DNA from: a virus
Direction: 5' to 3' (one strand)
Length of the DNA: 26,336 nt
UHGV virus genome: UHGV-0273073
Both the position numbers and the translations under genes were made by a program. How positions within the stretch are numbered: the first letter of the stretch is position 1; each line of letters begins with the position of its first letter. Shown here one piece after another: positions 3,145 through 21,348 of the stretch. The notes under the pieces were generated by a model. The model saw only the letters and a program-made list of their open reading frames with translations. It did not search any database and was not told where the DNA came from.

Positions 3145-3570
3145 TTAGCGTGGTAAGATCTGTGTAGTTTTCTGGATGCTTTCAGTAAATAGTAATGAAT
3201 TATCAAAGGTATAGTAATATCTTTTTTGTTCGTGGATATTTGTAACCCACCGAAAAACTCCTGCTTTAGCAAGGTTTCTTCTGTATTCCTGAAATGTGAT
3301 CTCTCTGGATTTCAGCTTATTAGAGGTCGTTTCTATAAGATGCCTATCCTTTGAAAATTTGACAGACACAATGTTTTTTAGGCCCTTTAATAACACTGTA
3401 TTATCATTTTTTAATACAATATGAACATTCTCTGTGGCTAAATAGTAAATGTAATGTGAGACATTGTGACGTTTTAGCTCAGAATAAAACCATTGATAGT
3501 TTAAATCGTTTCGAACTTTATCAAATATTTGTTTAAAAATGACTACCTGATCCATAGATAAACCTTCCAT
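3145..3570 (-). CDS. DUF1398-like (YdfO/YbcV-like) prophage protein; likely start at second Met (3555)
   Basis: ORF track 3145..3570 (141 aa); family assignment from recollection and synteny with Qin-type prophages. Confidence 0.6.
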
Positions 3571-3612
3571 GTGATATGAGGGGGCGTAGTCTGCACGATT
3601 ATCTAAATTGCT

Positions 3613-3846
3613 TCAATCTGGTCTGACCTGTTTTCTGAGCAATTCAGTAATGTCACTCTTTTCTTTGTTTGCTTCAGAAGAAACTCTTTTTTCTGAGCAC
3701 AGTCTCCGGCGGCAGGCTTCAATGACCCAGGCTGAGAAATTCCCGGACCCTTTTTGCTCAAGAGCGATGTTAATTTGTTCAATCATTTGGTTAGGAAAGC
3801 GGATGTTGCGGGTTGTTGTTCTGCGGGTTCTGTTCTTCGTTGACAT
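3613..3846 (-). CDS. Small ribbon-helix-helix-like DNA-binding protein
   Basis: 77 aa; NIRFPNQMIEQINIALEQKGSGNFSAWVIEACRRRL has a beta-strand/helix/helix layout typical of CopG/Arc-type RHH; basic N-terminus. Confidence 0.5.
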   Translation of the reverse strand: MSTKNRTRRTTTRNIRFPNQMIEQINIALEQKGSGNFSAWVIEACRRRLCSEKRVSSEANKEKSDITELLRKQVRPD

Positions 3847-4015: not shown

Positions 4016-4223
4016 GGGTCCTTTCCGGTGATCCGACAGGTTACGGGGCGGCGACCTCGCGGGTTTTCGCTATTTATGAAAATTTTCCGGTTTAAGGCGT
4101 TTCCGTTCTTCTTCGTCATAACTTAATGTTTTTATTTAAAATACCCTCTGAAAAGAAAGGAAACGACAGGTGCTGAAAGCGAGCTTTTTGGCCTCTGTCG
4201 TTTCCTTTCTCTGTTTTTGTCCG
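4016..4223 (+). promoter_or_regulatory. cos: Prophage cos site (cosQ-cosN-cosB); cosN 12-nt cohesive-end sequence GGGCGGCGACCT at 4046..4057
   Basis: Sequence matches the lambda genome termini as I recall them (…GGTGATCCGACAGGTTACG | GGGCGGCGACCTCGCGGGTTTTCGCTATTTATGAAAATTTTCCGG…); lies immediately upstream of Nu1. Confidence 0.9.
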
Positions 4224-4234
4224 TGGAATGAGCA

Positions 4235-4754
4235 ATGGAAGTCAACAAAAAGCAGCTGGCTGACATTTTCGGTGCGAGTATCCGTACCATTCAGAACTGG
4301 CAGGAACAGGGAATGCCCGTTCTGCGAGGCGGTGGCAAGGGTAATGAGGTGCTTTATGACTCTGCCGCCGTCATAAAATGGTATGCCGAAAGGGATGCTG
4401 AAATTGAGAACGAAAAGCTGCGCCGGGAGGTTGAAGAACTGCGGCTGGCCAGCGAGACAGATCTCCAGCCAGGGACTATTGAGTATGAACGCCATCGACT
4501 TACGCGTGCGCAGGCCGACGCACAGGAGCTGAAAAATGCCAGAGACTCCGCTGAAGTGGTGGAAACCGCATTCTGTACTTTCGTGCTGTCGCGGATCGCA
4601 GGTGAAATTGCCAGTATTCTCGACGGGATCCCCCTGTCGGTGCAGCGGCGTTTTCCGGAACTGGAAAACCGACATGTTGATTTCCTGAAACGGGATATCA
4701 TCAAAGCCATGAACAAAGCAGCCGCGCTGGATGAACTGATACCGGGGTTGCTGA

Positions 4755-4780
<26 letters not shown>
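4235..4780 (+). CDS. Nu1: Terminase small subunit
   Basis: 181 aa; MEVNKKQLADIFGASIRTIQNWQEQGMPVLRGGGKGNEVLYDSAAVIKWY… essentially as lambda Nu1; winged-HTH N-terminus. Confidence 0.97.
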
Positions 4781-8461
<3,681 letters not shown>

Positions 8462-10190: not shown

Positions 10191-10466
10191 ATGTCTGTAT
10201 ATACAACTGCAGAATTACTGGCATCGACCCAGCATCACTTTAAGTTCGATCCGCTGTTTCTGCGCCTGTTTTTCCGTGAAACCTATCCTTTCACCACGGA
10301 AAAAGTCTATCTCTCACAAATTCCGGGACTGGTAAACATGGCGCTGTACGTTTCGCCGATTGTTTCCGGTGAGGTTATCCGATCCCGTGGCGGCTCCACC
10401 TCTGAATTTACGCCGGGTTATGTCAAACCCAAGCACTTAGCATGGCTTTCTGAGGCTTTCGTGTAG
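10191..10466 (+). pseudogene. E: Major capsid protein E, 5' fragment: codons 1-82 (10191..10436) fused to 9 island-encoded codons then stop
   Basis: MSVYTTAELLASTQHHFKFDPLFLRLFFRETYPFTTEKVYLSQIPGLVNMALYVSPIVSGEVIRSRGGSTSEFTPGYVKPKH is lambda gpE N-terminus; homology ends exactly after His82, followed by LAWLSEAFV*. Confidence 0.92.
10426..10435. repeat. Left copy of 10-bp direct repeat AACCCAAGCA (putative attL core)
   Basis: Identical 10-mer at 20558..20567; both copies sit at the breakpoints of E homology. Confidence 0.8.
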
Positions 10467-10563
10467 TTGCTGGTTTTTACACTTAATCTTTTGATAATAA
10501 AGAATAAGTTTATCTGGCGCTTTCACTGGATTTTCCTCGTTATCTGTGTGTTGCAATCATCTC

Positions 10564-10583
10564 TGTATTGCAGCTTGTATTGC
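10564..10583. repeat. Arm-type direct repeats TGTATTGCA / TGTATTGC at 12-bp phasing (left arm, between attL core and int)
   Basis: The same 9-mer occurs three times at 12-bp phasing on the right arm (20449..20481). Confidence 0.65.
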
Positions 10584-10598: not shown

Positions 10599-11834
10599 AT
10601 GGCTGGCGAGAACAAACTGAGCGACAAAGCACTTAAAGGATATCTGGGGAAACCCAGAGAAAAGCAGATCACCATTGCTGATGGAAAGGGGCTTTCTATT
10701 CGTGTGAGTACCAAGGGGGCTGTGAGCTTTGTTTTCTTCTACAGGTTAGCAGGTGGCCGGGCTGCTCCGGTCTGGCTAACGTTGGGTAAATATCCTGATA
10801 TGTCACTCAAACAGGCAAGAGAAAAGCGCGACGAGTGCCGTGGTTGGTTGGCTGACAAACGTGATCCGCGTATCCAGATTAAGATTCAGGCTGAAGAACG
10901 CTTAAAGCCGGTCACAGTGGAGGATGCACTAAATTACTGGTATGAAAATTACTGTAAGGTGCGTCGTAAAACTCATGCTGTAACGCTTGGCAGATTTCGA
11001 AAGCATATCTTTCCCTATATCGGTCATTTGCCCGTAAATGACACTCACCTATATGAATGGCTGGACTGTTTTGACCGAATTAAACGTAATGCACCAGTTA
11101 TGGCGGCGTATGTTTTTTCTGACACTAAATTAGCTCTTCGTTTTTGTCGGGTACGCCAGTACGCGACGTGTGATGCTTTAAAGGATTTGCGCATGAGTGA
11201 TGTGGGGCAGATTGCAGGTAAGCGGGATCGGGTTCTGGATGAAGCCGAACTGGGCCAGCTCTGGAAGGCAATTTTTGTCGAGCCTGATTTAAAACTAATG
11301 TCTGAATACACGCGAAAAATGTTTGTGCTTTGTACAGTATTTGGATGTCGAATGAGTGAAGCCCGATTATCAGAATGGAGCGAATGGGATCTAGAAAGTT
11401 GGGTTTGGACTGTACCAAAAGAACACTCAAAAACCGGTGTTGAAATCGTCAGACCAGTACCTGAAATTCTACGACAGTGGGTAACGGATGTTCACGAAGA
11501 GACAAAACATACTGGTTATGTGCTGGGAAGTCTGCGAATTAGAGAAAGCGTAAGCAAGATTGGGGGGAAAATCGGTAAACGTTTGGGCCATGAAAAACAA
11601 TGGTCACTACACGACCTTAGAAGAACGCTATCTACTCATCTAAGTGATCTCGGTGTTGAATTTTATGTAGTAGAACAACTGTTAGGCCATGCGCTACCTG
11701 GCGTGGCAGGTGTTTACAACCGGAGTAAGTTTATGGCTAAAAAACTGGATGCTCTGGAACTCTGGACTACATATCTCAATAGCATCGCAGGTGCTGATTC
11801 AAAAGTGACAATCCTCAAACAAAAGGCTGGTTAA
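10599..11834 (+). CDS. int: Tyrosine site-specific integrase, P4 family (N-terminal arm-binding DUF4102-like domain)
   Basis: ATG at 10599 (MAGENKLSDKALKGYLGKP…); catalytic-region motifs HDLRRT and GVYNRSK (Tyr); the track's TTG-initiated extension 10467..10598 covers the arm repeats and is unlikely to be coding. Confidence 0.92.
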   Translation: MAGENKLSDKALKGYLGKPREKQITIADGKGLSIRVSTKGAVSFVFFYRLAGGRAAPVWLTLGKYPDMSLKQAREKRDECRGWLADKRDPRIQIKIQAEERLKPVTVEDALNYWYENYCKVRRKTHAVTLGRFRKHIFPYIGHLPVNDTHLYEWLDCFDRIKRNAPVMAAYVFSDTKLALRFCRVRQYATCDALKDLRMSDVGQIAGKRDRVLDEAELGQLWKAIFVEPDLKLMSEYTRKMFVLCTVFGCRMSEARLSEWSEWDLESWVWTVPKEHSKTGVEIVRPVPEILRQWVTDVHEETKHTGYVLGSLRIRESVSKIGGKIGKRLGHEKQWSLHDLRRTLSTHLSDLGVEFYVVEQLLGHALPGVAGVYNRSKFMAKKLDALELWTTYLNSIAGADSKVTILKQKAG

Positions 11835-11835
11835 C

Positions 11836-12066
11836 ATGAAAAAAATGGCAATTGTTGATAAAAAGGGTCTGGAGTACATTCCTAACATTGACCGAATGAT
11901 CCGTGAGAAAGAATGTCGGGAGCTAACCACTCTTGCGAACAGCACACGCTGGAAGCTGGAGAAGGAAGGAAAATTTCCTAAGCGGATCAAGATTGGTTCC
12001 ACTGCTGTTGCATATCGTCTTTCAGAAGTGCAGGCATGGATTCGAGGTGAGTGGGAAACAACTTAA
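11836..12066 (+). CDS. AlpA-family HTH regulator / excisionase-like protein
   Basis: 76 aa; core RELTTLANSTRWKLEKEGKFPKRIKIGSTAVAYRLSEVQAWI fits the AlpA/Xis pattern; directly downstream of int as in P4-like elements and PICIs. Confidence 0.75.
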   Translation: MKKMAIVDKKGLEYIPNIDRMIREKECRELTTLANSTRWKLEKEGKFPKRIKIGSTAVAYRLSEVQAWIRGEWETT

Positions 12067-12082
12067 CTATTAGGTGGGCATT

Positions 12083-12904
12083 GTGGCTATATTTCATTAT
12101 ACAGATCTTTTTGGTTTGAAAGGTATATTAGACTCTAATTCTTTATGGGCTACAAACATATATTTCTTAAATGATAAAGAGGAGTCTAACCATGGATGTG
12201 AATGCTTTCGAAATACAATTAAAATAGTTGATGACAATATCATTCCAAAAGATAAGAAAACTATTTTGCTCAAGTCTCTTGACATGTATGAGAAAGGGAG
12301 GTTACAAAAAGAAAAAGGGATTGATAAACATGTTTATAGCATCTCTTTTTGTAAGGAAAACGATAAGTTAAGTCAGTGGAGAGGTTACGGAAATAAACAG
12401 GGTGTTTGCATTGAGTTTGATGCGGATGAACTTGTGAGCTTTTCTCAAAATATTTATTTAAATTGTGTTGCACATGATGTTATATATTCAAATAATAACG
12501 ATGTTACTAAGATGAGTAAGGAGTTGGGGGCGTTTTTTTCTTGTAATGGTATTAATATTAAAGAAAAGAATGATCATTTTGTAACAATGGCCTCTACGTA
12601 TCAATTTATATCTAAATACATCCCATTTTTTAAACATCCTAGTTTTATCGAAGAAAATGAATTTAGATTGGTATTTACTCCGCGCATACTAATACCAGAT
12701 GTGCAATTCAGAATAAATAATAATGGTGTCATCCCTTATATCATCATTGGTAATAAAGATCATAGGAAGTTACCAATTAAAAGTATTACTATTGGCCCGA
12801 CAAACGATTATGATTTCATTGAGGCTGGTATAAAAATGTTCTTGGATTCAAAAGGATTTAGTTCAGTGGAAATTAAATCCTCATCAATTCCATTCAGGGG
12901 GTAA
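12083..12904 (+). CDS. Cargo protein of unknown function, AT-rich (possibly DUF2971-like)
   Basis: ORF track 12074..12904; GTG at 12083 preceded by AGGTGG; codon usage and AT content clearly differ from flanking genes; motifs IYFLNDKEE and YSISFCKENDKLSQWRGYGNKQGVCIEF. Confidence 0.7.
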   Translation: MAIFHYTDLFGLKGILDSNSLWATNIYFLNDKEESNHGCECFRNTIKIVDDNIIPKDKKTILLKSLDMYEKGRLQKEKGIDKHVYSISFCKENDKLSQWRGYGNKQGVCIEFDADELVSFSQNIYLNCVAHDVIYSNNNDVTKMSKELGAFFSCNGINIKEKNDHFVTMASTYQFISKYIPFFKHPSFIEENEFRLVFTPRILIPDVQFRINNNGVIPYIIIGNKDHRKLPIKSITIGPTNDYDFIEAGIKMFLDSKGFSSVEIKSSSIPFRG

Positions 12905-13035: not shown

Positions 13036-13392
13036 TCAATATTTAGGTGGTTCAACAAGAGCGTTTATCATTGCTCTCAAATTATCGCGAACACTTATCC
13101 AAGTCTGTTCTGCTCGTTCTAACTCATCAGTGTACAACTTTAATGTTTTATCTATGCCATATGTGGCTATTAAATTTATAGCTTCTTGTAACTTTTCGGG
13201 ATTATTCCTTCTTGGGGGAGTGAATATACCACGGATTTTTCCGGTAATTAAAGCTTTACGGTGTCTACATAGAATACCTTTACTTCCTGCTGGACAATTG
13301 CAAGTCATGATTAGCGAGCCAGAATCGTTTGATACAGTGACTATGTATACATCCAAACTACTGCTACTTGTTGCGAAGAATTCGTATTTCAT
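13036..13392 (-). CDS. Small SWIM-type zinc-finger protein (CxC-x8-CxH)
   Basis: 118 aa; TCNCPAGSKGILCRHRKAL; strong AAGGAG Shine-Dalgarno 7 nt upstream of the ATG on the minus strand. Confidence 0.7.
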   Translation of the reverse strand: MKYEFFATSSSSLDVYIVTVSNDSGSLIMTCNCPAGSKGILCRHRKALITGKIRGIFTPPRRNNPEKLQEAINLIATYGIDKTLKLYTDELERAEQTWISVRDNLRAMINALVEPPKY

Positions 13393-14559: not shown

Positions 14560-14859
14560 ATGGGAATGAAAAATACTGGTGTTAATGCCAGCGGCCCCGC
14601 TCGACCTGAATTTATGAACGGCGATATTTACCGCGATAAATACGGCGGCACGGTAACGATTAAAGGCGTGGCAGAACGGCGCATCACTTACCGCCGTGAG
14701 GGGTATAGCTATGACTGCGTGATGCCTGTTTATCAGTTCCGGCGTGATTTTTCCCTGGTATATGCCGCACCCCGCAGTAAGCCCACCAGCAGGGAAAAAG
14801 CGCGGGGAAACATCCAGAAAATGAAAAGCATGATTAACGCATTCAGGGGCAAAAAATGA
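14560..14859 (+). CDS. Hypothetical protein upstream of primase (operon member)
   Basis: 99 aa; stop overlaps the primase ATG (ATGA at 14856). Confidence 0.6.
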   Translation: MGMKNTGVNASGPARPEFMNGDIYRDKYGGTVTIKGVAERRITYRREGYSYDCVMPVYQFRRDFSLVYAAPRSKPTSREKARGNIQKMKSMINAFRGKK

Positions 14860-16607
14860 AACTGGCACCGAACTTAAAAAAACAGCCACGCGACAGACTG
14901 ACAGAGGTAATCATCTTTGCAGGTAGTGATGCGTGGAGCCATGCGAAAGAGTGGCAGGAATGGGCGGGTAAACATATTGCCGCCGACGATGTGCCGCCTG
15001 TCGTGCTGGCTGATGAGCAACTGAAAAACATCACCGATTACCGGATCATTGATGAAGATCGTCAGTGTGTGCGTGTTTACCGCGCAGGACATATCACAGA
15101 GCACAGCATGACGCAGATTGTTACGTTACTGGCTGTGGCTGGAGTGAAGACCGTACACGAATACGCGGGGATTACTGACACCAGCCCCGTGGATTTATCC
15201 GACCAGTTGCCGCGACTCAAAGAGGAATGCGAGCGTGGGGAAAGCCTGGTGCTTAATCTTCCGACGAAGCAAAAGGAGCAACTTTCACAGATGGCAGACA
15301 GTGAGCGGGCACAACTACTTGCCGATCGCTTTGATGGTGTTTGTGTTCATGCAGAAAGTGAAATCGTCCACGTATGGCGCGGCGGGGTATGGTGTCCGGT
15401 CAGCACAATGGAGCTGAGCCGCGAAATGGTGGCGATCTATTCAGAGCACAGGGCCACGTTCAGCAAACGCGTAATCAATAACGCCGTGGAAGCGTTAAAA
15501 GTTATTGCCGCCCCCATGGGGGAGCCGTCCGGTGATTTGCTACCGTTCACTAATGGTGTGCTTAATCTGAAAACGGGGGAATTTTCTCCGCACTCGCCGG
15601 AGCACTGGAGCACCACGCACAATGGTATTGAGTACACGCCACCAGTAGCAGGGGAAAACATCCGCGATAATGCGCCAAATTTCCATAAATGGCTTGAACA
15701 TGCTGCAGGAAAAGACCCGCGCAAGATGATGCGTATATGTGCCGCGTTATACATGATTATGGCGAACCGCTACGACTGGCAGATGTTCATTGAGGCCACC
15801 GGAGACGGGGGAAGCGGTAAGAGTACATTTACCCATATTGCCACCCTGCTTGCAGGCAAACAGAACACCGTAAGCGCAGAGATGACATCACTCGATGATG
15901 CAGGAGGGCGCGCGCAGGTTGTCGTGAGTCGTCTTATCGTCCTTGCCGATCAGCCGAAATATACGGGGGAAGGCACGGGCATCAAGAAAATCACGGGAGG
16001 CGATCCCGTTGAAATCAATCCGAAATATGAGAAGCGATTCACGACGATAATAAGGGCGGTGGTACTGGCAACCAATAACGACCCGATGATCTTTACCGAA
16101 CGGGCCGGAGGTGTGTCACGCCGTCGGGTGATTTTCCGGTTCGACAACATTGTAAGGGAGGACGAAAAAGACAAGGAATTACCGGAAAAGATAGCGGCAG
16201 AAATCCCCGTAATTATCCGCCGCTTGCTGGCTAACTTTGCTGACCCTGAAAAGGCAAGGGCTTTACTACTGGAACAGCGTGACGGTGATGAAGCTCTGGC
16301 AATAAAGCAGCAAACGGATCCAGTTGTTGAGCTTTGCGCGGCGCTTGAGTTTCTGGATGAAGCTCGTGGGCTAATGATGGGCGGTGGTGGTGACTCCGTG
16401 AAGTACACGACCAGAAACAGCCTTTACCGTGTCTATATGGCCTTCATGGCATACACAGGAAAGGGGAAATGTTTGAGCGTGAATGAGTTCGGAAAGGCTA
16501 TGAGGTCAGCGGCGAAAGTTTACGGATATGAATATATTACGCGAAAAGTTAAGGGAGTCACGCAGACCAACGCAACGACTACTGATGATTGCGATGCGTT
16601 TTTATAA
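14856..16607 (+). CDS. Replication primase/helicase (P4-alpha/PICI pri-rep-like, P-loop NTPase)
   Basis: 583 aa; Walker A GDGGSGKST; Walker B-like VLADQ; immediately followed by the iteron array. Confidence 0.85.
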   Translation: MKLAPNLKKQPRDRLTEVIIFAGSDAWSHAKEWQEWAGKHIAADDVPPVVLADEQLKNITDYRIIDEDRQCVRVYRAGHITEHSMTQIVTLLAVAGVKTVHEYAGITDTSPVDLSDQLPRLKEECERGESLVLNLPTKQKEQLSQMADSERAQLLADRFDGVCVHAESEIVHVWRGGVWCPVSTMELSREMVAIYSEHRATFSKRVINNAVEALKVIAAPMGEPSGDLLPFTNGVLNLKTGEFSPHSPEHWSTTHNGIEYTPPVAGENIRDNAPNFHKWLEHAAGKDPRKMMRICAALYMIMANRYDWQMFIEATGDGGSGKSTFTHIATLLAGKQNTVSAEMTSLDDAGGRAQVVVSRLIVLADQPKYTGEGTGIKKITGGDPVEINPKYEKRFTTIIRAVVLATNNDPMIFTERAGGVSRRRVIFRFDNIVREDEKDKELPEKIAAEIPVIIRRLLANFADPEKARALLLEQRDGDEALAIKQQTDPVVELCAALEFLDEARGLMMGGGGDSVKYTTRNSLYRVYMAFMAYTGKGKCLSVNEFGKAMRSAAKVYGYEYITRKVKGVTQTNATTTDDCDAFL

Positions 16608-16620
16608 AAAATGGCAATGG

Positions 16621-16850
16621 TTATCTACCTTGTCTACCTGACTGAAAGAAAATACTTTTATTTCAATGTATTAATGCAGGTAGATAACTATTTTTCACTG
16701 TCTACCTGTTATCTACCTTATCTACCCATTTTTGTAGACAGGTAAGGAGACGGGTAGAGATGAGGTAGACAGCTATTTGGGGCTGTCTACCTCCCTGAAA
16801 CCCGCGCCATTACTGGCCTGATAACTAATCAGGTAGACAAGGTAGACAAG
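16621..16850. repeat. Iteron-type replication origin: at least 12 copies of GTCTACC / GGTAGAC in both orientations plus an AT-rich spacer
   Basis: Copies at about 16623, 16632, 16678, 16701, 16711, 16720, 16734, 16753, 16764, 16785, 16831, 16841; AT-rich 16641..16676. Confidence 0.8.
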
Positions 16851-16896: not shown

Positions 16897-17154
16897 ATGC
16901 ACACATCAGGAAAACTGAACAAACATATAAAGCCACATTACCGCGCCCTTGATATGGCTGAACACTGGCTAAGGGTGGCGATTAAGGCAATAGACCGCAA
17001 CGCCGGGGAAGGATACGCGAAAGCACATCCCGAACTGATAAGCGCATTCATGACAACGGCGGCTGCAAACTTTGCCACGCTGACCGAACGGGAGATTGCC
17101 GAAGCGGAGGAAGTGACAACCATCAATATTAAGTCCGGAGAGCAGGCAGCATGA
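16897..17154 (+). CDS. Hypothetical 85-aa protein
   Basis: Stop overlaps the ssb start. Confidence 0.5.
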   Translation: MHTSGKLNKHIKPHYRALDMAEHWLRVAIKAIDRNAGEGYAKAHPELISAFMTTAAANFATLTEREIAEAEEVTTINIKSGEQAA

Positions 17155-17600
17155 CGGCGCAAATAGCAGCTTACGGGCGGCTGGTGGACGCCCCGCAGAC
17201 AAAACAGACCAGCAAGGGCACCCCCATGACGCTGGCGCGTATGGCGGTATCACTGCCCTGCAGCCAGTCGGATGACGGTCAGGCGACGATGTGGTTATCT
17301 GTTCTGGCGTTTGGCAGACAAGCCGACGCGCTGGCAAAGCATCACAAAGGCGAACTCCTGAGCGTGGCGGGTAACATGCAGGTGAGTCAGTGGACTGGAC
17401 AGAACGGTGAAACGCGGCAGGGCTGGCAGGTTATCGCAGACAGCGTAATCAGTGCGCGAACGGTGCGACCGGGCGGCAAAAAAGGCCAACAGGGGCAGGC
17501 TACTGACGCACTGAACAGAGCAAAACAACAGGCAGATCAGCAAGGAAGCCATCCACCAGTGGGAGATAATGAGCAATGGGGAGATGATATTCCGTTTTAA
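17151..17600 (+). CDS. ssb: Single-stranded DNA-binding protein
   Basis: 149 aa; OB-fold core and acidic C-terminal tail ending DDIPF, as in E. coli SSB. Confidence 0.9.
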   Translation: MTAQIAAYGRLVDAPQTKQTSKGTPMTLARMAVSLPCSQSDDGQATMWLSVLAFGRQADALAKHHKGELLSVAGNMQVSQWTGQNGETRQGWQVIADSVISARTVRPGGKKGQQGQATDALNRAKQQADQQGSHPPVGDNEQWGDDIPF

Positions 17601-17817: not shown

Positions 17818-18858
17818 ATGGTTGATTTATATTCGCCTACCCAGCTTGTACAGGTGGTTAATGCTGTAGATGTACAAAAACAACTAAATGCGTTGTTTAC
17901 CAGTTTGTTTTTTACTCGCTCGGTAATGTTTGAATCGCGCGATATTATTCTTGATACAATCGACGATCCAAATATCCCAATTGCAGCGTTTTGTTCTCCT
18001 ATGGTGGGTAGTAAAGTTTCACGTGACGAAGGGTACGAATCAAAAACAATTCGTCCAGGCTATATGAAGCCGAAAAGCAGCATTGATCCAAATAAGTTAG
18101 CTGTGCGCCCTGCTGGTGTATCACCTGAGCAATACAATGCTTTTGGAGCGCGTAATATTAAAGTTAAACAGGCGATTGTAAATCAGGCTAAAGCTATTCG
18201 TGCACGTATTGAATGGCTTGCCGTTCAGGCAATCACAACGGGGAAAAATATCATTGAGGGCGATGGTATTGAACGTTATGAGCTGGACTGGAATATTAAA
18301 CCACAAAATATCATCACTCAGTCTGGCGGTGCTGAGTGGTCAGGTAAGGATAAAGAAACTTTTGATCCAAATGATGATATTGAGAGCTACGCAGAATTTA
18401 GTGAGGGCGTCACTAATATCATCATTATGGGCGGTAATGTATGGAAGAAATACCGTTCATTCAGAGCGATAAAAGAGGCTCTGGATACCCGTCGTGGTTC
18501 TAATTCCGAACTGGAAACGGCCCTTAAAGACCTTGGTGATTCGGTGAGTTTTAAAGGGTATATGGGCGATGTTGCGATTGTTGTATACAGCGGGCGTTAT
18601 ACCGACGAGGACGGAACTGAAAAACATTTCCTTGATCCTGATTTGATGGTGCTTGGCAATACGGCTCTTCAGGGGATTGTCGCCTATGGCGGTATTCAGG
18701 ATCCGGAGCTAATCCGAATGGGGCTGACTAAAGCCGAACTTGCACCGAAAAACTATATTGTGCCTGGTGATCCGGCTATTGAATATGTGCAGACACATTC
18801 AGCACCACAGCCAATACCGGCCCGCATCAATCGTTTTGTTACCGTTCGCATTGGCTAA
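17818..18858 (+). CDS. Island-encoded major capsid protein homolog (divergent gpE-like)
   Basis: 346 aa from ATG 17818 (AGAGG 6 nt upstream), inside track ORF 17644..18858. Blocks ITQSGGAEWSGKDKETFDPNDDIESYA and DTRRGSNSELETALKDLGDSVSFKGYMGDVAIVVYSG align with ITQSGGTEWSKRDKSTYDPTDDIEAYA and DTRRGSHSELETAVKDLGKAVSYKGMYGDVAIVVYSG of the resident E (20569..21348). Confidence 0.9.
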   Translation: MVDLYSPTQLVQVVNAVDVQKQLNALFTSLFFTRSVMFESRDIILDTIDDPNIPIAAFCSPMVGSKVSRDEGYESKTIRPGYMKPKSSIDPNKLAVRPAGVSPEQYNAFGARNIKVKQAIVNQAKAIRARIEWLAVQAITTGKNIIEGDGIERYELDWNIKPQNIITQSGGAEWSGKDKETFDPNDDIESYAEFSEGVTNIIIMGGNVWKKYRSFRAIKEALDTRRGSNSELETALKDLGDSVSFKGYMGDVAIVVYSGRYTDEDGTEKHFLDPDLMVLGNTALQGIVAYGGIQDPELIRMGLTKAELAPKNYIVPGDPAIEYVQTHSAPQPIPARINRFVTVRIG

Positions 18859-18867
18859 GGGGGAGCA

Positions 18868-19209
18868 ATGGCTACTCATTACACTGAACTCATGGCTGGC
18901 ACTGAAGCACTGGTGACTACGCTGGGGATATTTTCAGCTAATAAAGGGGTAATTCCTGCATTTACGCCACTGATGCAGGAAGATGCAACAGGTGCACTGG
19001 TGGTATGGGATGGTTCGAGCGTAGGTAAAGCGGTTTATGTTTCCGCTGTACAAATCGACACCGCGAAAAAAACACAGGCTCAGGTCTATAAGACAGGTGT
19101 CTTAAATGTTGATGCTCTGAACTGGCCTGAGTCTGTAAAAGAACTGTCAGTAAAGATTGCAGCGTTTGTTGGCTCAGGTATTTCTGTTCAGCCGCTGGCT
19201 CGTGTGTAA
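18868..19209 (+). CDS. Island-encoded head decoration protein homolog (divergent gpD-like)
   Basis: 113 aa; TPLMQEDATGALVVWDGSS…YKTGVLNVDALNWPES…AAFVGSGISV aligns with resident [20 protein letters not shown]…[16 protein letters not shown]…[11 protein letters not shown]. Confidence 0.8.
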   Translation: MATHYTELMAGTEALVTTLGIFSANKGVIPAFTPLMQEDATGALVVWDGSSVGKAVYVSAVQIDTAKKTQAQVYKTGVLNVDALNWPESVKELSVKIAAFVGSGISVQPLARV

Positions 19210-19220
19210 AGGGGGATACA

Positions 19221-19604
19221 ATGCAAAATGATTACAATGACCTTAAGCCAATTGCCGAAATGATGTACCCGAATCCAGCTGTAGAGGAATTAAAAGCTAT
19301 CGCTGACAAAATGTGTTTAAGCGAGCGCCTTGTTGATATGAATCAGGTGATGGAAATTACAACCCTGAGTCGGCGTACACTGCTAAACCTTGAGGCTAGT
19401 GGAGAGTTCCCGGAGCGTGTGCAGGTTACGGAAGGGCGTAAGGCCTGGTATTTAAGTGAAGTGATCGACTGGATAAATAATATTCCTCGCGCTTCTGAAT
19501 ATTGCCGCGTACCTGTCCCAAAAAAGCCAGATGCGGCGCTATGCCTCAAGATTGAGCGTGTACGCCGCAATGCACGGGATGGTCGCTATAAGCTGATTGG
19601 TTGA
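19221..19604 (+). CDS. HTH protein (AlpA/excisionase-like fold with N-terminal extension) adjacent to the cos-like site
   Basis: 127 aa; MNQVMEITTLSRRTLLNLEASGEFPERVQVTEGRKAWYLSEVIDWI. Confidence 0.6.
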   Translation: MQNDYNDLKPIAEMMYPNPAVEELKAIADKMCLSERLVDMNQVMEITTLSRRTLLNLEASGEFPERVQVTEGRKAWYLSEVIDWINNIPRASEYCRVPVPKKPDAALCLKIERVRRNARDGRYKLIG

Positions 19605-19629: not shown

Positions 19630-19838
19630 CGGGTCCTTTCCGGCGATCTGACAGGCTACGGGGCGTCAGGCGCGCGGATTTTCGCTATTTATGAAAATTT
19701 TCCGGTTTAAGGCGTTTCCGTTCTTCTTCGTCGTAACTTAATGTTTTTATTTAAAATACCCCCTGAAAAGAAAGGAAACGACAGGTGCTGAAAGCGAGCT
19801 TTTTGGCCTCTGTCGTTTCCTTTCTCGTTTTTTGTTCA
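19630..19838 (+). promoter_or_regulatory. Island cos-like packaging site: cosQ/cosB nearly identical to the prophage cos (4016..4223), divergent cosN-equivalent 12-mer GGGCGTCAGGCG at 19661..19672
   Basis: By-eye alignment: about 150 bp of the cosB arm differ by only a few substitutions; the cosN 12-mer differs at 5 of 12 positions; no terminase genes in the island. Confidence 0.85.
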
Positions 19839-20185
19839 ACAATTGCGCGGTAGCAACTCGCCTTTCTGCTGCTGGAACTTATCCGGCACGTTTCCAGTGA
19901 TATCTGTCAGACAGCAGGCAAACAGGAGACAACGCAGTCGGACAGCACGACCGCTGAAAATTACGCGCGTGTGGTGCTTGAGGTTATGCGCCGTGACGGT
20001 ATCGAGCTTAACGGCGTGGATATGTGCAACATACGCACCAGAGTTCTGGAGTTGTTGCCATATCGTCGCCGTTCCATGTAGCGAAGGGAGAGCGCGAAAA
20101 ACACTTACCAGTGGAAGAAGCAGGAGCGGTTACGGCGGTAACTTGCTGATATTCCCGATAACGCAAAATTGCGTTGGCTGGCAGA

Positions 20186-20404
20186 GTGCAAATTTGCACG
20201 ATGGTCTAACCCATTGATTCTTTCGAAAATCACCATTGGGGGATAACGGGGGAATAAGCCTAACCCATTGATTCTTCCACAATCCTCAATTTGAGGAGAG
20301 CGGAATTATTACATGGCTGGATCAGGACTCCTTGAATTCAAGGAGTTCTCCTGTGTGAAAATGAAATTACCCAAGTTGGTGGGTGAGTTGCAGATCTGCA
20401 ACTC
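20186..20404. promoter_or_regulatory. Cluster of four palindromes in the island right arm: 20186..20199, 20284..20296, 20328..20345, 20385..20404
   Basis: GTGCAAATTTGCAC (14 bp, perfect), CCTCAATTTGAGG (imperfect), CTCCTTGAATTCAAGGAG (18 bp, perfect), GAGTTGCAGATCTGCAACTC (20 bp, perfect). Confidence 0.6.
20206..20276. repeat. Two copies of the 17-mer CTAACCCATTGATTCTT (20206..20222, 20260..20276), resembling the att core (AACCCA…)
   Basis: Exact direct repeat; shares AACCCA with the core AACCCAAGCA. Confidence 0.6.
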
Positions 20405-20448
20405 GGCTATGAAACTTAATAATCGAACAGCATGTAAATTCATTTCTG

Positions 20449-20481
20449 TGTATTGCAGCATGTATTGCAGCATGTATTGCA
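20449..20481. repeat. Three phased copies of TGTATTGCA (12-bp period), right-arm arm-type sites
   Basis: 20449, 20461, 20473; the same motif occurs twice on the left arm (10564..10583). Confidence 0.65.
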
Positions 20482-20557
20482 ACATAGTCATTCTGGTAGA
20501 GATTATGCTCTATTTTTCCTCTTATATCATTCACATACTTACGTCATTGACTCATGT

Positions 20558-20567
20558 AACCCAAGCA
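20558..20567. repeat. Right copy of 10-bp direct repeat AACCCAAGCA (putative attR core)
   Basis: Identical to 10426..10435; E homology resumes 1 nt after it. Confidence 0.8.
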
Positions 20568-20568
20568 T

Positions 20569-21348
20569 GAGGTGAATCCGCAGATGACCCTGCGTCGCCT
20601 GCCGGATGAAGATCCGCAGAACCTGGCTGACCCGGCTTACCGTCGTCGCCGTATTATTCGGCAGAATATGCTGGATGAAAATCTGGCGATTGCCCAGGTC
20701 GAAGAGATGCAGGCAGTTTCTGCCGTGCTTAAGGGCAAATACACCATGACCGGTGAAGCCTTCGATCCGGTTGAGGTGGATATGGGCCGCAGTGCGGCGA
20801 ATAACATCACGCAGTCCGGCGGCACAGAGTGGAGCAAGCGTGACAAGTCCACGTATGACCCGACCGACGATATCGAAGCCTACGCGCTGAACGCCAGCGG
20901 TGTGGTGAATATCATCGTGTTTGATCCGAAAGGCTGGGCGCTGTTCCGTTCCTTCAAGGCCGTCAAGGAGAAGCTGGATACCCGTCGCGGCTCTCATTCC
21001 GAGCTGGAGACAGCGGTAAAAGACCTGGGCAAAGCGGTGTCTTATAAGGGAATGTATGGCGATGTGGCCATCGTCGTGTATTCCGGACAGTACGTGGAAA
21101 ACGGCGTCAAAAAGAACTTCCTGCCGGACAACACGATGGTGCTGGGGAACACTCAGGCACGCGGTCTGCGCACCTATGGTTGCATTCAGGATGCGGACGC
21201 ACAGCGCGAAGGCATTAACGCCTCTGCCCGTTACCCGAAAAACTGGGTGACCACCGGCGACCCGGCGCGTGAGTTCACCATGATTCAGTCAGCACCGCTG
21301 ATGCTGCTGGCTGACCCTGATGAGTTCGTGTCCGTTCAACTGGCGTAA
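20569..21348 (+). pseudogene. E: Major capsid protein E, 3' portion (codons 83-341), separated from its 5' part by the island
   Basis: Frame reads TAA-P-K-H-EVNPQMTLRRLPDEDPQNL… through the normal C-terminus …DPDEFVSVQLA; 82 + 259 residues = 341 as in lambda gpE; an in-frame TAA (20557..20559) lies just upstream. Confidence 0.92.

Follow-up and report, generated by a model that had tools for sequence, protein, structure and literature searches.

Laboratory cosmids and the satellite P4, which uses the cos of P2, are small terminase-less replicons that carry a helper cos and are packaged by the helper terminase. P4 remodels the capsid with Sid, and its cohesive ends are those of P2. Satellites that lie inside their helper were described as 'helper-embedded PICIs' (HE-PICIs) by Tommasini, Mageeney and Williams in 2023 (PMC10111431). 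The founder, Eco567.11capE, is inserted in capsid gene E of the lambdoid prophage 50icd of E. coli NRG857c, and 201 further instances were reported at the 11capE site (PMC10111431). A 258-bp segment with 90% identity is common to 11capE and its helper at the lambda cos position, and packaging by the helper cos machinery was presumed by the authors; in the NRG857c system a plaque assay gave no detectable virions, and transfer was not shown (PMC10111431). For the terms searched, the main text of PMC10111431 holds no discussion of cosN or of the modularity of cosB and TerS.

The Rpp-type PICIs such as EcCICFT073, whose description by Fillol-Salom 2019 is taken here from the review of Murialdo and Feiss 2022 (PMC9026076), have a cosQ and a cosN that are near-identical to those of lambda, while their unrelated cosB is read by an Rpp-TerS heterocomplex. 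The rpp gene lies after cosB and encodes a TerS-DBD-like product of 135-153 aa (PMC9026076). For lambda itself, Feiss and co-workers found that cosN is asymmetric in function and that changes at bp 7-12 have minimal effect, that C11G has no phenotype and G2C costs about 10-fold, and that the nick-flanking CG pairs and cosQ are invariant (PMC4669245). The departures from the lambda sequence are at bp 9 and 12 in N15 and phiD326 and at bp 8, 9 and 11 in Gifsy-1, and the N15 cosN is cut by lambda TerL as well as lambda's own (PMC4669245).

We analysed a window of 26,336 nucleotides (the whole stretch of DNA, from virus genome UHGV-0273073), in which an island of 10,132 bp, measured core to core, lies inside capsid gene E of a lambda-like helper. 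The E frame is lambda-like until 10435 and again from 20568, and the 10-bp core AACCCAAGCA is found at both junctions. All matches in the Pfam assignments of the island proteins were above the cut-off. The features of the helper and the island are as follows:

4235-4780, plus strand: helper Nu1 gene (181 aa)
4755-6680, plus strand: helper gpA/TerL gene (641 aa)
10191-10435, plus strand: N-terminal fragment of gene E, the helper's major capsid gene, which runs to the attL core
10426-10435, plus strand: attL core AACCCAAGCA, a 10-bp identity block as for 11capE (PMC10111431)
10436-20567, plus strand: embedded satellite (HE-PICI), from Pfam hits and the same layout in other E. coli genomes
10599-11834, plus strand: int, P4-type tyrosine integrase (Pfam Phage_integrase/Arm-DNA-bind_3)
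11836-12066, plus strand: alpA (Pfam Phage_AlpA)
12074-12904, plus strand: DUF2971 protein gene (Pfam)
13036-13392, minus strand: SWIM-finger protein gene (Pfam)
14856-16607, plus strand: D5-type primase gene (Pfam D5_N/DUF5906)
17151-17600, plus strand: SSB gene (Pfam SSB)
17818-18858, plus strand: E-like capsid gene of the lambda-E family (Pfam Phage_cap_E)
18868-19209, plus strand: D-like decoration gene of the gpD family (Pfam HDPD)
19221-19604, plus strand: second AlpA-family HTH gene, 127 aa (Pfam), with cos directly after it
19839-20557, plus strand: segment in the TerS-gene position of relatives, with a stop-interrupted 91-aa ORF remnant and repeats
about 19902-20138, plus strand: the stop-interrupted remnant of the 91-aa ORF, a homologue of the ORF after TerS in the related island L160
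20206-20303, plus strand: short direct repeats
20558-20567, plus strand: attR core AACCCAAGCA
20568-21348, plus strand: C-terminal part of the helper capsid gene E, resuming past attR

All the major island genes share their strand with the helper late genes, and they follow the Gram-negative PICI layout, with integrase and AlpA, an accessory zone, a primase/replication zone and a late zone with a capsid gene. The island resembles 11capE in its site in gene E, in its 10-bp core AACCCAAGCA and in its gene order (int, alpA, accessory, primase, SSB, E-like, D-like, AlpA-like HTH, cos). The cosN alleles are also the same, since in the NRG857c locus (L185) the island core is GGGCGTCAGGCG and the helper core is lambda-type, which is the allele pair of the window. 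It differs from 11capE in that its cosB is nearer to the lambda type and no Nu1 fragment follows R1, whereas the NRG857c island has a 64-aa Nu1-derived stub, then HEPN and DUF262 cargo. The island belongs, as a helper-embedded PICI, to the published 11capE family. Most of it is present in 26 of 5,426 complete E. coli genomes, the capsid gene being split in every one with annotation listed, and the island-type cos occurs in about 133 complete E. coli genomes.

Accessory cargo varies among island copies, with DUF2971 in the window (12074-12904), HEPN and DUF262 in NRG857c (L185 18009-19725), and other hypothetical genes in L183 (17933-18868) and L184 (17490-18806); the cos-to-attR slot varies particularly strongly. 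IS insertions or pseudogenes are present in several copies, and in L182 the primase is split by IS1 and SSB has an internal stop. The E-like capsid and D-like decoration genes of the window island (17818-19209) are intact, with about 41% identity between the E-like protein and a helper-type E (L125). PICI capsid genes are dispensable for transfer, according to literature cited in PMC10111431. A motif containing TGTATTGCAGC lies just inside both island ends (10560-10583; 20445-20480) and is doubled at the right end near attR; these motifs may be integrase arm-type sites, possibly the HE-PICI 'doubled DNA motif' of PMC10111431. Immediately 3' of the primase gene, short repeats, both direct and inverted, are clustered (16620-16800; GTTATCTACCTT; AGGTAGA...CTGTCTACCT) in the place where a PICI replication origin is expected.

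In L182 and L183 (558-2193), ydfO/ynfO-like genes precede the helper cos and the Nu1 gene is annotated nohA, like the K-12 Qin region, and two minus-strand ORFs of the window (3145-3846) lie at the matching position. The NRG857c helper is located at icd. Lambda-like prophages at different chromosomal sites therefore carry one and the same island type.

The subsites of the helper cos were placed by lambda numbering (PMC9026076, R3 = bp 50-65) and by exact matches to the R1 and R2 16-mers; the island subsites are listed with them:

4016-4210, plus strand: helper cos, containing cosQ, cosN, R3, R2 and R1
4016-4022, plus strand: helper cosQ GGGTCCT (lambda numbering)
4046-4057, plus strand: helper cosN 12-mer GGGCGGCGACCT, the lambda cohesive-end sequence
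4095-4110, plus strand: helper R3 (lambda numbering)
4154-4169, plus strand: helper R2 (exact 16-mer match)
4195-4210, plus strand: helper R1 (exact 16-mer match)
19631-19637, plus strand: island cosQ GGGTCCT, the same as the helper's and at the same distance to cosN
19661-19672, plus strand: island cosN 12-mer GGGCGTCAGGCG, with the conserved CG on either side
19710-19825, plus strand: island cosB, with R3, the IHF-site interval, R2 and R1
19710-19725, plus strand: island R3, identical to helper R3
19769-19784, plus strand: island R2 (inverted), identical to helper R2
19810-19825, plus strand: island R1, identical to helper R1

The earlier note had aligned island 19630-19838 with helper 4016-4223 by eye. 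The alignment is real, with the island start off by one base: 19631-19838 pairs without gaps with 4016-4223, and 193 of the 208 positions are identical (15 mismatches, 92.8% identity). The five differences that it counted in the cosN 12-mer are exact (GGGCGTCAGGCG in the island versus GGGCGGCGACCT in the helper, at positions 6, 8, 9, 10 and 12), and the few substitutions that it saw on the cosQ side and in the cosB arm come to 10 mismatches in the 196 positions outside the 12-mer. Since mismatches pile up in the core (5/12 versus 10/196 elsewhere; Fisher p = 6e-4), the island cosN is a different allele and not the product of random drift.

The homology between island and helper begins exactly at cosQ and ends just past R1, and within it cosQ, R3, R2, R1 and the CG dinucleotides beside both predicted nick sites have the same bases at the same spacing. 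In the island, the cosQ heptamer GGGTCCT precedes the first cohesive-end base by 30 bp, as in a lambda-type cos, and R3, the IHF site I1, the inverted R2 and R1 follow at lambda spacing, with two substitutions relative to the helper between the R sites (19733, 19762). The island 12-mer occurs once in the whole window. Compared with the lambda-type left half GGGCGG, it keeps bp 1-5 and the flanking CG and has T instead of G at bp 6. Of 16 bp at cosN, 8 are rotationally symmetric compared with 10 in lambda, and 10 of the 12 bases of the core are G or C, with a predicted duplex stability of the ends about that of lambda's. The best explanation, to which we give a probability of about three in four as a whole, is that the 208-bp segment represents a complete lambda-type cos with a natural variant core and a recombinant origin, and would be the packaging site of an 11capE-type HE-PICI.

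In diverged island cos copies, the G before TTTCC of an R repeat is changed to A, at the same relative base each time. This change was seen in R2 and R1 of L184 (17000-17260), in R2 of L183 (17000-17260) and in R3 and R2 of the NRG857c island (L185 17500-17770), as well as in some helper R3 sites (L182, L183). Co-variation with TerS specificity is a possible cause, as is chance.

To place the two cores among natural variants, IMG/VR was scanned for lambda-type cos with any 12-mer and then for the right half AGGCG, and the sites were sorted by their neighbouring genes. Among the matches listed, the lambda-type core GGGCGGCGACCT was the commonest in Nu1 and gpA contexts without island genes, the proportions being rough, and it was found in one island context (L171). 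The core GGGCGGAAGGCG was found in about 35 Nu1 and gpA contexts without island genes and in 4 island contexts of IMG/VR, and also in the deposited phages PhiR46_1 and YDC107_1. The window island's core, GGGCGTCAGGCG, was found in 18 island contexts and in three island-free Nu1 and gpA contexts of IMG/VR (L125, L168, L174), and GGGCGGCAGGCG in one Nu1-only context on a truncated contig and in no island context. The three island-free contigs are prophage-derived and show no island genes in the 1.3-13 kb of available upstream sequence. Identity to the window helper in these contigs is 99% for Nu1 and 98-99% for gpA, and L125 has an intact Nu1-A-W-B-C-D-E cluster. These contigs are what the database search proposed in the earlier note brought up; an exact GGGCGTCAGGCG in a lambda-type cos context was absent from the deposited phage genomes of the INPHARED set, in which PhiR46_1 and YDC107_1 were the best matches. 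In L171 (IMGVR_UViG_2623620496_000002), the roles are reversed, with GGGCGGAAGGCG in the helper cosN and GGGCGGCGACCT in the cosN of the embedded island (cos sites at 2312 and 14577, minus-strand reading).

The gpA of the window helper is identical to that of PhiR46_1, whose cosN differs, at 609 of the 610 residues available. Because gpA is near-identical across alleles in this way, one TerL essentially serves all three alleles in nature. The earlier note had offered different cohesive ends, reduced nicking or an origin from another lambdoid phage as the meaning of the altered core. The last is the favoured reading, as the same or a near-identical 12-mer is present in island-free lambda-like contigs and in deposited phages with essentially identical TerL. 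Among E. coli lambda-like phages, the variant core thus appears to be a second naturally occurring cosN allele and not a satellite-specific device.

The island allele retains G2, C11, both CG pairs and cosQ, and four of its five changes fall within bp 7-12. Reduced nicking is unlikely because these four changes lie in the part of cosN that is insensitive in the published genetics (PMC4669245). The sole left-half change is G6T, for which the parts of the published terminase genetics literature that were consulted gave no data on its effect; its presence in three island-free contexts suggests that it is tolerated. Like N15, phiD326 and Gifsy-1, the island allele varies mostly at bp 7-12 and conserves cosQ, the flanking CG and, except at bp 6, the left half, and a variant allele of that group is cut equally well by lambda TerL. 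It differs from them in having more changes (five), including G6T, which is outside the scope of PMC4669245.

It is quite unlikely that the island cos is weakened or decaying, that is, that the five substitutions, and G6T above all, lower nicking and leave a poorly used or relic signal. Left-half changes in cosN can harm, as G2C does (PMC4669245), the TerS gene of relatives has been lost from the window island, TerS or SSB pseudogenes and IS insertions are found in several relatives, and the published system gave no detected virions (PMC10111431). However, the 12-mer is unchanged in the 18 island copies, including those with markedly diverged cos flanks (L183, L184, NRG857c), and the window island has kept all its R sites, cosQ and the CG pairs at the predicted nicks intact. 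In addition, GGGCGTCAGGCG stands in front of island-free head-gene clusters with Nu1 and A, and the cluster of L125 is intact from Nu1 to E.

The absence of terminase genes from the island, as the earlier note had stated, is true for the window: tblastn with helper Nu1, gpA and two island TerS types (L160 and L124) gave no significant match in the island, with noise-level matches only. In close relatives, a TerS gene or pseudogene lies directly after cos. In L160-type islands (L160 4238-4996), an unrelated cosB is followed by the gene for a 183-aa Pfam Phage_Nu1 protein (E = 1e-24) that is 34% identical to Nu1. L144, L148, L173, L179, L180 and others have an L160-like arrangement, and their E, D and HTH proteins are 98-100% identical to those of the window. 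The 183-aa protein seems to be a TerS of the island's own, with a private recognition site, which would amount to a SaPI-like redirection. Compared with PDB sequences, among which RppC and the Nu1 DNA-binding domain were sought, L160 TerS had no match at E <= 1, and it is identified by Pfam Phage_Nu1 only. A term search of the main text of the HE-PICI paper (PMC10111431) gave no mention of the L160-type arrangement of TerS and private cosB.

In L124-type islands (12251-12802), cos is that of the window from cosQ through R1 and is followed by an intact TerS gene. This TerS is chimeric, with the first approximately 100 aa being helper Nu1 bar one residue and the C-terminal approximately 80 aa being divergent; the divergent part is the region said to bind TerL. 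In L001 (12753-13304) and L182, the chimeric TerS gene has an internal stop and cos is more diverged, being PhiR46_1-like in cosB, and in the NRG857c island (L185 17751-17945) the chimeric TerS is shortened to the 64-aa Nu1-derived stub. The window and the L139 contig, which is 98.9% identical to it over 1.1 kb, have a lambda-type cosB with no TerS after it, only the stop-interrupted homologue of the post-TerS 91-aa ORF of L160. A SaPI-like TerS of its own is thus missing from the window island and present in relatives, with a private cosB in L160 and as a chimera in L124. Taken together, the family appears to span three packaging configurations.

The L160-type islands also point to the origin of the window cos. 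In the E, D and HTH proteins they are 100% identical to the window island, and from upstream of cosQ through cosN to approximately bp 36 of cos the two match with one difference (19678); past this point, L160-type islands have unrelated sequence at the expected R3 position. Because the diagnostic bases of the window cos are island-type up to 19678 and lambda-type from R3 on, the island cos is, judged from its sequence, a recombinant of an island-type cosQ and cosN with a lambda-type cosB, in a lineage that has lost TerS. Its ancestor, an island that had a TerS of its own and a private cosB, would have swapped the part to the right of approximately cos bp 36 for a lambda-type cosB; the present lineage lacks TerS. 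The cosB donor was probably a close relative and not necessarily the resident prophage, because of the differences at 19733 and 19762. The earlier proposal that the island recruits helper Nu1/A through a copied cosB therefore holds in part: the cos appears to be complete and lambda-type with intact subsites, but its cosB was not simply copied from the resident helper. Many relatives appear to rely on a TerS of their own and a private cosB.

The window island resembles Rpp-type PICIs (EcCICFT073) as a putatively cos-packaged E. coli satellite of a lambda-like helper, with lambda's placement of cosQ and cosN and a predicted need for the helper terminase. The arrangement is the inverse, however, since the window island keeps the lambda cosB, varies cosN and encodes neither Rpp nor TerS. 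Its cosB is lambda-type, no Nu1- or TerS-like coding sequence follows cos, and the 127-aa protein is encoded upstream. We considered this 127-aa HTH protein as a relative of Rpp or TerS and rejected it, as it belongs to the AlpA family by Pfam and by PDB 8c3t; it is also unlikely to read cosB, being 100% conserved in islands with unrelated cosB types. Unlike P4, the island has 12-nt ends that differ from those of its helper, and it carries its own E- and D-like genes.

Most likely, helper Nu1 and gpA would package the island, as for a cosmid or P4. From the anatomy, the allele distribution, the near-identity of TerL and the mosaic structure of cos, all of them observed, we infer binding, nicking and packaging along the following lines. 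Upon induction, the composite would excise and replicate and the island would excise afterwards, an order of composite replication and then island excision that was measured for NRG857c (PMC10111431). The island would replicate by its own primase and origin. Helper Nu1 and IHF would assemble on the island R3-I1-R2-R1, and Nu1 would position helper gpA, which would make nicks 12 bp apart at 19660/19661 and 19672/19673. Because the unit is 10.1 kb and multimers of 4 (40.5 kb) or 5 (50.7 kb) are within the lambda range, such island multimers would fill the helper heads, as multimer packaging is expected for a cosmid-like 10-kb unit in a lambda head. Phage-length concatemers have been reported for a model PICI, in work cited in PMC10111431.

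In all seven composites examined (the window, L182, L183, L184, L070/L071, NRG857c and L171), the helper and island alleles differ, and L171 is mismatched with the roles reversed (helper GGGCGGAAGGCG, island lambda-type). We consider it improbable that this reflects adaptive private ends, with the satellite keeping a cosN unlike the helper's to stop its ends annealing with those of the helper. As long as the island stays inside the replicating composite, the next helper cos would come roughly one phage length downstream of a fully competent island cos (about 46 kb in the published 61-kb NRG857c composite, an estimate and not a measurement), and island-to-helper molecules with mismatches at 5 of 12 end positions could not cyclise; incompatible ends as an adaptation to this situation are similarly improbable. 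If true, the products from island cos to helper cos would be helper genomes without head genes, dead on arrival, and the satellite and helper packaging series would stay genetically separate. The commonest island allele is rare in phage contexts, and a cohesive-end mismatch of 2 nt already cuts the yield about 4-fold (PMC4669245). However, among the matches listed about two-thirds of the phage contexts are lambda-type and about four-fifths of the islands have TCAGGCG, and since these allele frequencies give about 90% mismatch by chance, the 7/7 mismatch is uninformative; we rejected it as a signal of selection, as it has no power. The composite samples are also non-independent, the difference in allele frequency is explained by common descent of the island cos, and there is no evident benefit to the island from killing hybrid molecules. 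Islands with near-identical proteins carry either alternative allele (L144 versus L160), which suggests neutral exchange.

It is very improbable that the island is tuned to a different lambdoid helper with GGGCGTCAGGCG and is a mere passenger in the resident prophage: such contexts without island genes exist (L125, L168, L174), but the Nu1 and gpA of these contigs are 98-99% identical to the resident helper's, which leaves no basis for discrimination, the integrase targets gene E of exactly the resident phage type, and the helper cosN is unlike the island cosN in 7/7 composites with both cos read.

The reading of the island cos as a lambda-type packaging site with a natural variant core does not overturn current understanding. 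This kind of satellite and the tolerance of changes in the cosN core were each described before, and the case, though real, is largely ordinary. What is added is modest: the cosN difference appears to be a shared natural polymorphism, consistent with the known tolerance of the right half, the cos appears to be recombinant, and three configurations are seen. Natural variation adds support for the indifference of lambda TerL to the right half of cosN, a view already published, and G6T provides a left-half change that is apparently tolerated in nature. For a published class that is embedded in helper late genes, the packaging route in this lineage is apparently plain cos mimicry, without an island packaging gene. 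Of the sister lineages with identical capsid genes, some combine a private cosB with a Nu1-family TerS of their own, and others have a chimeric TerS that carries the lambda DNA-binding domain. The family would therefore provide a natural series for how recombination just to the right of cosN swaps packaging specificity.
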